Origin: a virus
Lineage: Duplodnaviria; Caudoviricetes
Length of the DNA: 64,000 nt
Virus record (IMG/VR): IMGVR_UViG_3300029288_000075
Span: 123,858-187,857 of that record
Direction: 5' to 3' (one strand)
Position 1 is the stretch's first letter. Every line of letters starts with the position of its first letter. The notes beneath the pieces were generated by a model. It was not told the origin of the DNA and did no database searches. It saw only the letters and a program-made list of their open reading frames with translations. Of the stretch, positions 2 to 52,822 are shown in pieces. The translations under genes were made by a program, and so were the position numbers.

Positions 2-259
2 TTGCAGCAGGCAACTGAGACGGCGTGGGACTCAAGGGTTACCGCGCCCCTGATGCGGGCTGCTGATCGAGGGCTACGGCATCTTCCTGAAGGCAAGGCT
101 CGCAACTTGGCCACCTCCGGTGCGCGGTTGTTGGCCGAAGATCCTGTTGGATTTACGGTCACGAATGCCATACCAATACCGGGAGCTTCTCCTGCTTGGA
201 TCGCGGCCAAAAGGGGACTTGAACGCGTGATTGACAAGACTGCGCCTCTGCAAGTCTGA
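2..259 (+). CDS. Partial (5'-truncated) hypothetical protein, possible virion/head protein
   Basis: Open frame from the window edge to TGA at 259; ends in a K-T-A motif like other candidate virion proteins here. Confidence 0.5.
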   Translation: MQQATETAWDSRVTAPLMRAADRGLRHLPEGKARNLATSGARLLAEDPVGFTVTNAIPIPGASPAWIAAKRGLERVIDKTAPLQV

Positions 260-276
260 CATGTAGCAGGCATAAG
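251..276 (+). promoter_or_regulatory. Phage bipartite promoter CAA-N15-GGCATAAG
   Basis: Motif shared by 12 operon starts; leader has hairpin CTCTG-TAT-CAGAG, then GGAGG and ATG 312. Confidence 0.7.
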
Positions 277-311
277 GACTCTGTATCAGAGATCCTACCT
301 GTTGGAGGAAC

Positions 312-899
312 ATGCGCGTATGCCCTGTTTTACTAGGCTATTTGAGTGGCCTGAGAAAGCACATTGACTTTGATTCTCCTCTGAACGAATTCGGTTTGCC
401 CACCCAGGAGGAACTGGAAGAACGGTGCAAAGCCCAACTGGTGTCAGAGGCTACTTCACACTTGCGCGGATTCTACTGCGTACAGGAGACGCTTGCTAGG
501 CTGGCACTGCGCTGGCCAGCTGCGGTTCTCATGCCAGAGATGCCCAAGGCGAGCATGTCGGCGTACTACTTGATGCAGGTCGTATCTTGGGTACGAGAGG
601 TAGAGGATCTTCTTGCCGGCAATGCGTTGGAGACTGCGGTCATGCAACGTACGCTACCTCTGCAGGAGACCGGAGGAGGGCAAGTACATCAGCAAGATGC
701 TGAGAGGGCGTCTAGGCTTTGTTCGTACCTTGTGTTGGAGGCCATGCCCCTACGCAGGTCCCTCAAGGACAGACGCACAAGTTTGCGGCGGGTTGGTCAC
801 TACTATGCCCGCGTGCTATTGGATGTTGGGACTAGCGTTGCCGCTGCTCATAGAGAGGCGTTGGCATTGAGCCAGAACGTGGAGGAGAAGTATGCCTGA
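312..899 (+). CDS. Hypothetical protein
   Basis: GGAGG SD, 195 aa, overlaps next gene. Confidence 0.7.
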   Translation: MRVCPVLLGYLSGLRKHIDFDSPLNEFGLPTQEELEERCKAQLVSEATSHLRGFYCVQETLARLALRWPAAVLMPEMPKASMSAYYLMQVVSWVREVEDLLAGNALETAVMQRTLPLQETGGGQVHQQDAERASRLCSYLVLEAMPLRRSLKDRRTSLRRVGHYYARVLLDVGTSVAAAHREALALSQNVEEKYA

Positions 900-1251
900 A
901 GCTAGCGCGGAAGAGCTTCCCAGCTTGTTGCTTGAGGTGCGTGAGTCGAGCACAGCCAAGAACAAGCAAGGTATGTTCGTAGGGGCTATTCAGCTGGTCT
1001 GCGTCACCCGTGACGAAGGGATCTTTGATGCCGCGGTGCAGTACTTGGACGGCTACAAGATGTATGGCTCTACATCGGAGGAGGTGATACAGGCGTTGAC
1101 GGCCGAGTTGCATGACGTGGAGGAGACTCAGGCTTCTCTGCTAGTTCGTAATGGCCTGCTCGAGCGCCGTATACGGGAAAAAGACGCCAGAATAGCTCAG
1201 CTCGAGCGTCTTCTGGGCGCCTTGGGCACGGACCTGGGCTTTGACGACTGA
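892..1251 (+). CDS. Hypothetical coiled-coil protein
   Basis: GGAGGAG SD, heptad-like C-terminus. Confidence 0.7.
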   Translation: MPEASAEELPSLLLEVRESSTAKNKQGMFVGAIQLVCVTRDEGIFDAAVQYLDGYKMYGSTSEEVIQALTAELHDVEETQASLLVRNGLLERRIREKDARIAQLERLLGALGTDLGFDD

Positions 1252-1275
1252 GCGTTGTACACTTGTCGGAGGCAA

Positions 1276-1731
1276 ATGGCACATTCAAGTACAGACGATT
1301 ACCCCGTTCGCATCACTTCTCCCGACTACAAGACGGCTGACCGCAGTGAGTTGGAGGCGTGGCTTAGAAAGGAAGCTGCAGCTGTAGCTGGAGGGGTCAA
1401 GCCTGAGGACAACGAGGATTCTACAACCGCTCAATACAGCGAGTTGTACGAGCCTCCAGCTGGCGCAAAGAAGCTCGTAGAGACTGCCCTCCATACGACG
1501 TACCCTAATGGGGCAGCCTCGCAGGCCACGCAGCGTGAGGTACTGGACGGCGCATTTGCCAGTACACCAGCTACAGCCAAGGCAGAGCAAGCGCTACTTA
1601 GCGCAAATTTCGAACATGCGCGCACTGGAGACTTCGAAACGCAAGCGCCATTGCTACGTGGCGAGCGCGCGAAGGGTAAGGTAGCGCACTTTCTGTCAGA
1701 CCGTACGCACTTGCTGGGGCTTGGGAAGTGA
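1276..1731 (+). CDS. Hypothetical protein with K-x-A motifs (possible head protein)
   Basis: GGAGG SD before ATG 1276; TACACT -10-like box at 1258-1263; stop overlaps the sigma start. Confidence 0.65.
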   Translation: MAHSSTDDYPVRITSPDYKTADRSELEAWLRKEAAAVAGGVKPEDNEDSTTAQYSELYEPPAGAKKLVETALHTTYPNGAASQATQREVLDGAFASTPATAKAEQALLSANFEHARTGDFETQAPLLRGERAKGKVAHFLSDRTHLLGLGK

Positions 1732-2483
1732 ATGCAGCTGACGAATTCCTAGAGACCAAGCAGAAGACCGCCGCGGCTCGAGCCGCGCAGGATCTTCATC
1801 TTTGGCATGCGTGGGATCAAGGAGGAAGGACACCTCAGCTGCTGGAGCCACTGCTGTCCAGGTACGACTCGCTCATGAACCGTAGGGCGAATGACTGGCG
1901 TGCCCCTACGGTGGCCCCGGCGGCATTCAAAGCTGAGCTGCATAAGCAGTTCATTCAAGCAGCACACTCGTACGATCCTGAGCGTGGTGTGGCCTTCAAC
2001 ACACACGTGCAGTCTCGTTTGAAGAAAGCTCAGCGGTTCAACGCCAAGCACCAAAACGTGGGGTACATACCTGAGGACTTGTCCAGACACGTAGGTCCCA
2101 TGGAGCGTGCCAAGAACGAGCTTACGGACCAGTTCGGACGTCCCCCCACTACGGTGGAACTTGCGAATCACATGGGCTTGCCGCAGCGTAAGCTCACTGC
2201 GCTAATTACTCAGCTACGAAGGGATGTGCCATCGTCGCATTTCGAGTCAGATCCCACGACGCTATCCACGGGTAGGGAAGCAGACGTGGTTCGTTTGATG
2301 AAGCGCAGACCGGAGGAGTACCTGACACCCGAGGAAGTACGGGTATTTTCTCACATCTACGGCATCAACGGTGCTCGGAAGATTACGGATACGACGTCGT
2401 TGGCCACCCAACTTGGGTTGAGTCAACCAAAGGTCTCACGCTTGAAGACCTCAATCGCGAAGAAGGTTCAGCAGTACCTCTGA
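1728..2483 (+). CDS. RNA polymerase sigma factor, group 3 (FliA/WhiG/SigB/SigF-like)
   Basis: Region 2 AAHSYDPERGVAFNTHV, region 3 ELTDQFGRPPTTVELANHMGL, region 4 HTH LATQLGLSQPKVSRL; no region 1.1. Confidence 0.88.
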   Translation: MNAADEFLETKQKTAAARAAQDLHLWHAWDQGGRTPQLLEPLLSRYDSLMNRRANDWRAPTVAPAAFKAELHKQFIQAAHSYDPERGVAFNTHVQSRLKKAQRFNAKHQNVGYIPEDLSRHVGPMERAKNELTDQFGRPPTTVELANHMGLPQRKLTALITQLRRDVPSSHFESDPTTLSTGREADVVRLMKRRPEEYLTPEEVRVFSHIYGINGARKITDTTSLATQLGLSQPKVSRLKTSIAKKVQQYL

Positions 2484-2511
2484 CGTAGAACCCACTGGGC
2501 TACGTATTGAT

Positions 2512-2540
2512 AGGCGACGTGCGTCAGCACGCCGCCTTTT
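2512..2540 (+). terminator. Intrinsic terminator-like hairpin after the sigma gene
   Basis: AGGCG-a-CGTGC-gtca-GCACG-c-CGCCT followed by TTT. Confidence 0.55.
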
Positions 2541-2549
2541 GGAGTTTTC

Positions 2550-51547: not shown

Positions 51548-51573
51548 CTTATGCCGTATTCCCTGCCTGTTTT
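51548..51573 (-). promoter_or_regulatory. Phage promoter AAA-N15-GGCATAAG
   Basis: 36 nt upstream of ATG 51511; back-to-back with 51587. Confidence 0.75.
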
Positions 51574-51586
51574 CAGGAATCGCTAC

Positions 51587-51612
51587 AAAGGTTGTACTGG
51601 CTGTGGCATAAG
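51587..51612 (+). promoter_or_regulatory. Phage promoter AAA-N15-GGCATAAG
   Basis: 6 nt upstream of ATG 51619. Confidence 0.7.
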
Positions 51613-51618
51613 GAGTCC

Positions 51619-52201
51619 ATGCGAGCTCGTCTCATACCGTACGGAGACCTCGTCCATGTCACCGTGGTGATGACTTTGGATGAAGCAATGTCCATCGTGA
51701 GTCTGCTGTCGGGTACAGCGGTGGAGAAGGACCAGCTGGAACTACAGCGCGAATTGGAAGAAGCACTGAACCGGGCTGCCAGCATGGCGGCCCCAAAGAG
51801 AGGAACCGATGCAAAAGTGGAGCGTGATCAACAGGCAGACGAGGGAAGTGGTGGGGGAGATCGAGGCGGAACGTCAAAGCGACGCCATAAGCAGGTTGGT
51901 AGAACAGCGCGGAGACGAAGCTAGGTACTACTCGATTTCACTGGCTAGCCGTGAAGTCAGTACACCACCAGAGGACCTGGAGCTTTCGGCGTCACAGATG
52001 GCAGAGGTGATCCGGAGCTGGGCGATTCGAGAGAAGGGGTTCCCAGAAGGTACCAATGTGCTGCTACGGTTCCACGGCGACTATCGGTCCAAGGTGGAGC
52101 TGATGTTTTTGACACAGGCGGTTGCCAAGGTGCAGGCACCAAGGCTCGAGAAAGAGCCAGACTTGGAAGTTGCTGGCATCGATGCTGAGGAGGACGTGTA
52201 A
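51619..52201 (+). other. Two hypothetical CDSs (51619-51924, 51809-52201)
   Basis: ORFs downstream of the promoter motif. Confidence 0.55.
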
Positions 52202-52299
52202 GAGGGCTAGTACTGAACAAACGTACCAACGAATACGGGTATCCAGGGAAGGCCTCAGAAATGGGTGGTGCCGGGATTTCGGTTCAAATACCTCTTGTA

Positions 52300-52410
52300 T
52301 TTCCCTACTCTCTTTCTCTCTCTCTCTACTGATCACTTTTACTTTCCTGAAGGAGACCCCCACCCCCTGTACACCCCCCGGGGGGTAGGCTTCCGAAAAG
52401 TAAAAGTGTC
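52300..52410. repeat. Intergenic CT tract, 12-bp inverted repeat and 14-bp palindrome
   Basis: CACTTTTACTTT 52334-52345 / AAAGTAAAAGTG 52397-52408; ACCCCCCGGGGGGT 52373-52386. Confidence 0.75.
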
Positions 52411-52532
52411 GAAGACCGCGAAAACGAGAAAAGGCTAGATAGGGGTCCTACTAAGCCCATTTGTGGCATGGTTTTCTGGCACCACCGTTTGAGCCACCAT
52501 TTTGGCAACTGGAATCTCTCCGCAGGAGGTCC

Positions 52533-52757
52533 ATGGCTATCTGCGAATTCTGCAAACAGGAAATGACGGCAGGGGTAGCCTGCACATTCGACTTCCCACC
52601 TGGCGAATGCACGCCTAGGATCCCGCATCCCGCGGATGCAAAGGAACGATGTCACGACTGCTTTGTCCCGCCCGGTGGGCTACATCATCCTGGCTGTGAC
52701 AGCGAGGAGTGTTCGGAATGCCACGGACAGGCGGCAGCCTGCGGCGGTTGCGCCTAA
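52533..52757 (+). CDS. Cys/His-rich zinc-binding phage protein
   Basis: AGGAGGT SD; CEFC..RCHDC..LHHPGCDSEECSEC. Confidence 0.7.
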   Translation: MAICEFCKQEMTAGVACTFDFPPGECTPRIPHPADAKERCHDCFVPPGGLHHPGCDSEECSECHGQAAACGGCA

Positions 52758-52796
52758 GCCGCACTTTGGATGTATCTACCGGCAGTATCGGTAGGC

Positions 52797-52822
52797 AAAT
52801 GCCCTGCAAAGAGGGGCATAAG
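52797..52822 (+). promoter_or_regulatory. Phage promoter AAA-N15-GGCATAAG
   Basis: 15 nt upstream of ATG 52838; heads the ATPase/nucleotide operon. Confidence 0.75.

Follow-up and report, generated by a model that had tools for sequence, protein, structure and literature searches.

The sigma factors gp28 and gp33/34 of phage SPO1 and gp55 of phage T4 are made after infection and act on the host core RNA polymerase, in phages that have no polymerase of their own. In these cascades, one temporal class of genes is marked by a promoter word of its own, which a sigma-family protein of the phage reads. To our knowledge, all phage sigma factors described so far use the host core. In contrast, phages of the phiKZ and AR9 types encode bacterial-type polymerases, including a virion enzyme for early genes, which read short phage-specific words as single elements near the transcription start (PMC7598289; PMC5312081; PMC7824862). 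The known phage multisubunit polymerases use no sigma factor, and a jumbo-phage survey recorded polymerases and sigma factors in separate phages but never together (PMC7824862). Here, we describe a class of two-box promoters in a phage (Caudoviricetes) that encodes a sigma factor and a polymerase together. The 64,000-nucleotide window that was analysed corresponds to bases 123858-187857 of the 187,857-bp IMG/VR record IMGVR_UViG_3300029288_000075, which is 99% complete and has 57% G+C. A rough gene call on the whole genome gave 247 open reading frames (ORFs) covering 93% of the bases. Positions below refer to the window unless they are given as genome positions. A literature search found no paper describing these promoters.

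The promoters are built around the octamer GGNATAAG. The window contains 14 copies of it, compared with an expectation of 4.08, and none of 100 shuffles reaches this count. For the bipartite form AA-N16-GGNATAAG, 11 matches were found where 0.17 are expected. The whole genome contains 26 copies, 22 of which are intergenic, and intergenic DNA makes up 7.5% of the genome (binomial P = 1.8e-21). A genome-wide enrichment upstream of genes, proposed as a check in a preliminary description of this DNA, is thereby established. Twelve of the copies lie outside the window, and eight of these are promoter-like, with a -35-type box. Across the genome, 17 copies stand at most 60 nucleotides (nt) ahead of a start codon on the same strand, mostly at 16-24 nt. 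Copies with an upstream box are intergenic in a ratio of 21:1, whereas those without it show a ratio of 1:3 (Fisher P = 0.006). The final G of the motif is specific, because GGNATAAT and GGNATAAA have no intergenic copies and GGNATAAC has two, compared with 22 for GGNATAAG.

The preliminary description had listed 12 motif sites in the window, and all of them are present at their positions and on their strands. It had also mentioned a possible 13th site, which proved genuine (GGTATAAG at 33822(+)), and two divergent pairs (11295/11400 and 51548/51605), both of which are real. Its range of 6-36 nt between motif and start codon was reproduced: in map order, the distances are 35, 20, 20, 24, 21, 17, 20, 16, 36, 36, 6, and 15 nt, although the last two are counted to the nearest ATG after 51605(+) and 52815(+), which is not shown to be the true gene start. 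The ORF that is kept in relatives downstream of 52815 begins at 52911. The middle A of the upstream triplet, said to be invariant, lies 17 nt ahead of the motif in 12 of 12 window sites and in 21 of 22 intergenic sites genome-wide.

Alignment of the sites revealed an upstream box, c-n-G-R-A-A-R, a core preceded by t-C-n, and a T-purine pair 6 and 7 nt past the core. Among the 22 intergenic sites, A is found at motif index -18 in 19 (P = 1.6e-10) and at index -17 in 21 (P = 1.6e-13). Past the core, T occupies index 13 in 17 sites (P = 3.7e-8) and a purine occupies index 14 in 21 (P = 5e-6). As a control, 50 ATAAG copies within genes show background frequencies at these four positions. The distance from the A at index -17 to the A at index 3 is 20 nt in 21 of the 22 sites. 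Orthologous promoters, of which six pairs were compared, agree in their boxes but not in their spacers. The T-purine pair looks like a transcription start. With the purine at index 14 as the predicted start (+1), the G-R-A-A-R box falls at -34 to -30 and G-G-n-A-T-A-A-G at -14 to -7, with T at -1, and the overall layout reads GAAA, 15 bases, GGnATAAG, a two-box arrangement of the sigma type, unlike the single short elements of the phiKZ and AR9 types. The bipartite promoter claimed in the preliminary description is supported by intergenic placement, orientation toward genes, a fixed -35-like box, a start-like T-purine pair, and one copy ahead of a non-coding RNA.

The predicted leaders are mostly 10-18 nt long and hold little beyond a Shine-Dalgarno sequence. 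A subfamily of promoters shares a longer, near-identical block, GGGATAAGAWAGGTAGWGGAGGAAC, that extends across the predicted start site into the ribosome-binding site. Its members are found at window 11288-11310 and at genome 25357, 48037, 67987, 110218, and 165975. Hairpins had been reported in the three longest leaders of the window. The hairpin at 51548 is strong (-12.7 kcal/mol, z = -3.4), and that at 50336 is a weak 5-bp stem (z = -1.0). The one at 269 did not hold up, because it spans the predicted start and would therefore not be intact in the RNA. A separate, perfect 12-bp hairpin without a U-tract lies at 33836-33870(+), where it directly follows the start predicted for the promoter at 33822 and precedes the next ORF by about 75 nt.

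The same word is found in relatives of this phage, in whose whole genomes k-mers upstream of genes were counted against the genome background. In Salmonella phage Arash (OQ632216; 181 kb, 53% G+C), whose corresponding sigma factor is ~30% identical, GGTATAAG is the top upstream 8-mer (22 versus 1.6 expected), and 30 of its 31 copies are intergenic. In Vibrio phage D69 (187 kb, 45% G+C; sigma factor 28% identical), the top upstream 8-mer is GTTATAAG (17 versus 1.2 expected). Exact GGNATAAG is not enriched in D69 (24 versus 26 in the control), and the D69 variant was obtained by de novo counting. Two uncultured phages, G001 (195.6 kb with terminal repeats) and G002 (a 111 kb fragment), each with 60% G+C and a 62% identical sigma factor, carry tcgGGnATAAGAg with gcAA upstream, at 15 nt in G001 and likewise in G002, and a core that reads tcgGGnATAAG. 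In all five genomes compared, the upstream A and the T-purine pair stand at equal offsets. The promoter class is lineage-specific rather than host-specific, accompanying the homologous sigma factor in four related phages with at least two different hosts.

The placement of the motif is also shared. Arash and Vibrio phages D69, D181, and D148 share with the phage studied here a homologous sigma factor (28-30%), a homologous polymerase (~32%), and an ATAAG-core promoter before non-structural genes. The papers that were searched describe no promoter in any of these relatives. In Arash, nearly all GGTATAAG copies are ahead of minus-strand blocks of non-structural and tRNA genes. The sole plus-strand copy is directly ahead of gp9-gp10, gp10 being the homologous sigma factor; D69 has no copy before its sigma gene. 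In the phage studied here, G001, and G002, a motif copy lies ~1.5 kb upstream of the sigma gene. All four complete motif-bearing genomes encode a gp10-like sigma factor and a bacterial-type RNA polymerase.

Arash and D69 differ from the phage studied here in several respects. Their polymerase is split over two genes instead of forming one chain, and their -10 word, G[G/T]TATAAG, has a T at -12. In both, a full TG-n-TATAA is present, with TG at -15/-14. They also share a second sigma factor (the gp196 type, 42% identical between the two) and a second upstream word, TAAAATA. In both phages this word, as c-TAAAAT-a, stands before plus-strand genes for virion proteins (portal, beta', endolysin), often fused head to head with an ATAAG promoter (CTTATACCCTAAAATA). 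Neither the second sigma factor nor the TAAAATA word occurs in the phage studied here or in G001 and G002; the gp10-like sigma factor is thereby left as the partner of ATAAG.

The candidate sigma factor is a 251-aa protein encoded at 1728-2483(+), which has a Pfam Sigma70_r3 match and is 30% identical to Arash gp10. Arash gp10 in turn matches the locus at 2e-16 (tblastn). An AlphaFold (AF2) model built from 46 homologues has 14 helices and a mean predicted local distance difference test (pLDDT) score of 91.8. Foldseek matched the whole length of the model to SigD, SigB, sigma-S, and SigA from holoenzyme structures, in alignments of 244-290 columns. The protein contains sigma2, sigma3, and sigma4 but no region 1.1 and no non-conserved insert, and its size is that expected of a group-3 factor, ~25-30 kDa. 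By sequence, the closest solved structures are WhiG (6pfv) and SigF (1l0o). The preliminary description had assigned the protein to group 3. While the complete sigma2-sigma3-sigma4 architecture agrees with that assignment, the family scores do not single out a group: the best NCBIfam models are nearly tied (SigBFG 1.5e-8, WhiG 1e-7, cyanobacterial RpoD 1.6e-7, FliA_WhiG 2.7e-7), and all scores, at 30-35 bits, are far below the cut-offs of 190-385. For example, the protein scores 30.6 bits on TIGR02479 FliA_WhiG (cut-off 189.6) and 31.9 bits on WhiG (cut-off 343). At E <= 1e-10, its family comprises 574 representative clusters.

No second sigma factor was found in the genome, which makes the protein at 1728-2483 its sole one, and Arash gp196 has no homologue there. 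A second Sigma70_r4 match (genome 67477-67578) was rejected as a sigma factor; it is produced by the helix-turn-helix at the C-terminus of an HNH homing endonuclease. The endonuclease gene lies between virion-type genes at genome 67030-67671(+) and could be mistaken for a second sigma gene.

The polymerase is a fused, single-chain beta-beta' RNA polymerase encoded outside the window, at genome 52197-58583. It is 69% identical to its counterpart in G001 and ~32% identical over ~1500 aa to those in Arash and D69, and a homologue is also found in the more distant G003. Arash is the one relative that is both cultured and published. In its virion proteome, beta (gp206) is represented by 3516 spectra, beta' (gp216) by 1210, and the sigma factor gp10 by 467 with 100% coverage (PMC10585845). 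Since the phage encodes a polymerase, and the virions of Arash contain both polymerase and sigma factor, the enzyme that reads these promoters is likely an all-phage holoenzyme rather than a host core carrying the phage sigma factor. The preliminary description had favoured the latter, and this part of it is not upheld.

We therefore consider it probable that the motif defines a promoter class owned by the lineage and read by the phage sigma factor together with the phage fused beta-beta' polymerase. We observed the motif directly, together with its two boxes, where it is placed, and how it is kept in phages of different hosts; the identity of the enzyme is deduced from these observations and from the Arash virion. 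Region 4 of the sigma factor would read the upstream box, and regions 2-3 would read GGnATAAG, in association with the single-chain polymerase. By analogy with Arash, the holoenzyme would probably be delivered in the virion with the DNA. It would then turn on the replication cluster, nucleotide-metabolism genes, small orphan genes, and at least one small RNA. Activation of the sigma operon by the same enzyme would make the program self-reinforcing. The G at -7, in place of the T of sigma-70 promoters, may keep these promoters private. A stronger version, in which the phage carries a self-contained transcription machine whose virion-delivered single-chain polymerase depends on the phage sigma factor and is insulated from host sigma-70 by this G, is a tentative proposal that we would hold at slightly less than even chances.

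The promoters can be compared in detail with two bacterial classes. In the sigma-28 promoter of Pseudomonas aeruginosa fliC, TCTAAAG spans -36 to -30, GCCGATAA spans -15 to -8, and the A at -11 is flipped out (PMC12784957). The statement in the preliminary description that the phage promoters have the same geometry as those of sigma-28 is correct, because the distance from the last upstream A to the A at -11 is 20 nt, as between the conserved As of the phage promoter, and because an ATAA run occupies -11 to -8 in both. An A-rich -35 box is common to both, and so are G/C bases directly ahead of the ATAA run that act as an extended -10 element. However, the phage reads n-G-G-n at -15 to -12 where GCCGATAA has G-C-C-G, with C, G, or T at -12, and its word carries an extra invariant G at -7 that has no sigma-28 counterpart. 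In the phage -35 box, G-R-A-A-R as against TAAAG for sigma-28, the two central As are conserved (19 and 21 of 22 sites), whereas G comes first in 12 of the 22 and T seldom does. The factors differ as well, in that the candidate phage sigma factor is below the FliA-family cut-off and its likely core is the phage polymerase.

Extended -10 promoters of sigma-70 (TGnTATAAT) share with the phage promoters the G at -14, the A at -11, T-A-A at -10 to -8, and a start ~7 nt past the hexamer. Unlike these promoters, the phage word has G rather than T at -7 in every copy. Only 1 of 17 sites has T at -15, and the base at -12 varies. The phage -35 box is not TTGACA-like, because it has no G at the third position. 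Neither the sigma-28 nor the sigma-70 consensus has a match for the invariant G at -7 or for the GG at -14/-13. In the 36-54 kb part of the window, which holds eight ATAAG promoters, canonical sigma-70-type sites are not enriched (3 versus 6.0 expected).

These comparisons bear on the possibility that the promoters belong to a host holoenzyme, either as an unusual extended -10 class of the housekeeping sigma factor or as flagellar sigma-28 promoters, with no phage factor in recognition. The TG-n-TATAAG of Arash and D69 is indeed five-sixths of TATAAT plus the TG extension, and the box spacing equals the sigma-28 geometry. We regard this explanation as quite unlikely. All 22 intergenic copies here and 30 in Arash have G at -7, a position where sigma-70 strongly prefers T. 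GGNATAAT is never intergenic in this phage, T at -15 is rare, and the bases at -12 to -14 differ from the GCCG of sigma-28. The word is also kept across different hosts, and such near-invariance is typical of a dedicated factor and not of housekeeping promoters. The motif might alternatively be no promoter at all but a conserved leader, a translation enhancer, or an RNA-processing signal beside the ribosome-binding site. Its tight spacing of 16-24 nt before most start codons, and the extension of the GGGATAAGAWAGGTAGWGGAGGAAC block into the ribosome-binding site, would suit such a role. However, a separate box is conserved 15 nt upstream across a spacer that is not, and motif-to-ORF distances range from 6 to >80 nt. 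The copy at genome 110443(-) heads a small RNA and is followed by no ORF for 239 nt. The full two-box promoter at genome 63342(-) opens into an intergenic stretch of 213 nt, runs antisense to the plus-strand genes beside it, and has no ORF behind it; the putative small RNA past this site folds no better than its shuffles (z = +0.3). Because of these two sites and the divergent pairs that stand back to back in intergenic regions, the motif is read as a promoter, and a translation or processing signal is highly improbable.

If the motif is a promoter read by phage factors, the composition of the enzyme can still be drawn in other ways. The phage sigma factor could recruit the host core, as SPO1 gp28 and T4 gp55 do, with the phage polymerase serving other genes. 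Its complete sigma2-sigma3-sigma4 and the full-length superposition of its model on bacterial sigma factors in holoenzyme structures would be compatible with a bacterial core, and both the known use of host core by phage sigma factors and the survey in which jumbo phages had sigma factors or polymerases, not both (PMC7824862), point the same way. This arrangement is nonetheless unlikely, as sigma factor and phage polymerase occur together in every complete relative examined and are co-packaged in Arash virions. Furthermore, the motif is constant between hosts as far apart as Salmonella and that of a 57-60% GC landfill phage, so that one sigma family would need to fit very different host cores. 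Conversely, the phage polymerase might read the motif without the sigma factor, alone or with another phage factor, in the manner of the phiKZ and AR9 non-virion polymerases, and the sigma factor might serve another class such as the virion genes. The sigma-free nature of the known phage multisubunit polymerases (PMC7824862) favours this idea, and so do the lack of a significant promoter word established for the virion genes and the case of G003, which has a sigma factor but no ATAAG enrichment. It is rather improbable given that a sigma factor with regions 2 and 4 reads just such a pair of boxes, set at the spacing of the sigma family. In addition, ATAAG is the only strong upstream signal other than the ribosome-binding site in this phage, G001, and G002, and this clade has a single sigma factor, lacking the second sigma and second motif of Arash and D69.

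Several points weigh against recognition by the phage sigma factor and polymerase, the reading that we prefer. The distant relative G003 (IMGVR_UViG_3300021594_000641; 190 kb, 45% G+C) encodes a split polymerase and a gp10-like sigma factor, yet it shows no enrichment of an ATAAG-type or any other word besides the ribosome-binding site, which means that the link between this sigma family and ATAAG is not universal. The link itself is suggested by co-occurrence across effectively two independent clades. For the virion genes, which include the polymerase gene, the candidate word TG[C/G]TAC is not significant against the reversed control. The start site and the timing of expression are predictions. 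The TG-n-TATAAG word of Arash and D69 is one base away from a host extended -10 element, and some host sigma-70 use may occur there. Virion packaging was demonstrated in Arash, and it is extended to the present phage by analogy. As a separate observation, the conserved Q-N pair of region 2 reads N-Q in the G003 sigma factor.

The genes behind the promoters are of recognizable kinds. Sites in the window head small orphan ORFs and a NUDIX hydrolase. The unit behind the 269 site consists of three small ORFs and the sigma gene, so the sigma operon itself stands behind one motif copy, a point that the preliminary description did not discuss. The same-strand run from 269 continues to genes for thymidylate synthase and RNase HII, with no other motif copy until 11400(+). 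Outside the window, the sites head a minus-strand replication cluster (genome 25-42 kb) and other short minus-strand units. The cluster encodes a family A DNA polymerase (PolA), a primase, a DnaB-like helicase, a RecA-like protein, a uracil-DNA glycosylase (UDG), an SNF2-type helicase, and a Cas4-like nuclease. No motif copy is found in the long plus-strand blocks that carry large and virion-type genes (genome 0-25, 52-63, 68-107, and 110-124 kb). For this reason, the earlier label of early/middle-type genes is a fair description of a regulon of replication, nucleotide-metabolism, and small orphan genes, with the timing itself a prediction.

Five promoters of the window lie in its first 34 kb. 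Promoter 1 (249-283, +) has GGCATAAG at 269-276, the box TGCAA, and T-G at the start, and it heads ORFs 312-899, 892-1251, and 1276-1731 and the sigma gene 1728-2483. Promoter 2 (11288-11322, -), with GGGATAAG at 11295-11302 and a position-weight matrix (PWM) score of 33.5, heads ORF 11014-11274 and diverges from promoter 3 (11380-11414, +). The latter has GGCATAAG at 11400-11407, heads a long array of small plus-strand ORFs from 11428, and has an orthologue in G001 and G002. Promoter 4 (30795-30829, +; GGCATAAG at 30815-30822) heads ORF 30847-31815, the NUDIX hydrolase. Promoter 5 (33802-33836, +) has GGTATAAG at 33822-33829, the box CAAAA, and T-G at the start; the 12-bp hairpin follows, and the next ORF begins at 33942.

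The other eight promoters are clustered between 37 and 53 kb. Promoter 6 (37631-37665, -; GGTATAAG at 37638-37645) heads ORF 37425-37616, and promoter 7 (42111-42145, -; GGGATAAG at 42118-42125) heads ORF 41399-42100. Promoter 8 (43363-43397, -; GGCATAAG at 43370-43377) heads ORF 42939-43349, and its start reads A-G instead of T-purine. Behind promoter 9 (45573-45607, -; GGGATAAG at 45580-45587) are ORFs 44538-45563 and 43391-44572. The box of promoter 10 (50329-50363, -; GGTATAAG at 50336-50343), CGCAA, is offset by one base; ORFs 49295-50299 and 48816-49295 follow this promoter, and its leader has the weak hairpin. The strong leader hairpin belongs to promoter 11 (51541-51575, -; GGCATAAG at 51548-51555), which heads ORFs 51128-51511 and 50370-51131 and diverges from promoter 12 (51585-51619, +; GGCATAAG at 51605-51612). 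The predicted start of promoter 12 is the A of the ATG at 51619, so its mRNA may be leaderless. The ORF that follows (101 aa) overlaps ORF 51809-52201, and no homologue of it is present in the relatives. Promoter 13 (52795-52829, +; GGCATAAG at 52815-52822) lies upstream of the conserved ORF 52911-53264.

Two further window sites are of a different status. The copy at 25860-25894(+), with GGCATAAG at 25880-25887, the partial box TACAT, and T-G at the start, was absent from the preliminary list and lies inside the 1025-aa gene 23101-26178. Every other boxed copy is intergenic; this one may be either an internal promoter or a chance copy. A position-weight scan added weaker variants at genome 42165(-), 110030(-), and 28172(-) and at window 27140(+). 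The first of these, GGCAAAAG, heads the replication cluster. The last (27120-27154, +), with GGTACAAG at 27140-27147 and a PWM score of 16.2, is located 20 nt before ORF 27168-27794 and, as an inexact match, is tentative.

Other features of the DNA were noted along the way. TG[C/G]TA-nnn-[T/C] words (GTGCTAC, TGGTACAAT, TGGTAAAAT) are found 6-30 nt before plus-strand virion-type genes, at window 37702, 42163, 45675, and 57728 and at genome 5046, 9889, 42229, 68731, and 110466 (all +). They often stand back to back with an ATAAG promoter, and two of them are conserved in G001. Taken one by one, some of these sites are persuasive, and they may form a host-type extended -10 class for virion genes (TG-n-TA-nnn-T or GTGCTAC); such a class is not claimed, as its intergenic enrichment equals that of the reversed control. 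A tRNA-Phe with the unusual anticodon AAA at 42554-42629(+) was detected by ARAGORN and scores 45.5 bits on the Rfam tRNA model; it is the sole gene within a 500-nt intergenic stretch. An Rfam scan of the window returned only tRNA. For window 43000-52999, no RNA dataset had matches, and those obtained came only from landfill and groundwater DNA metagenomes.

These promoters represent the cis side of the proposed system: a defined two-box word, a predicted start, and a clear regulon, which together offer a handle on the enzyme that reads them and on the role of the G at -7. They should also aid annotation across a large group of uncultured phages of 180-195 kb. An orthogonal expression system could be built from the promoters if only the phage enzyme reads them. 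The lineage carries both a polymerase and a sigma factor, whereas the known systems have one or the other, the phiKZ and AR9 polymerases being sigma-free and phage sigma factors using the host polymerase. If the proposed pairing is true, the enzyme of this lineage would be the first sigma-dependent phage multisubunit polymerase.

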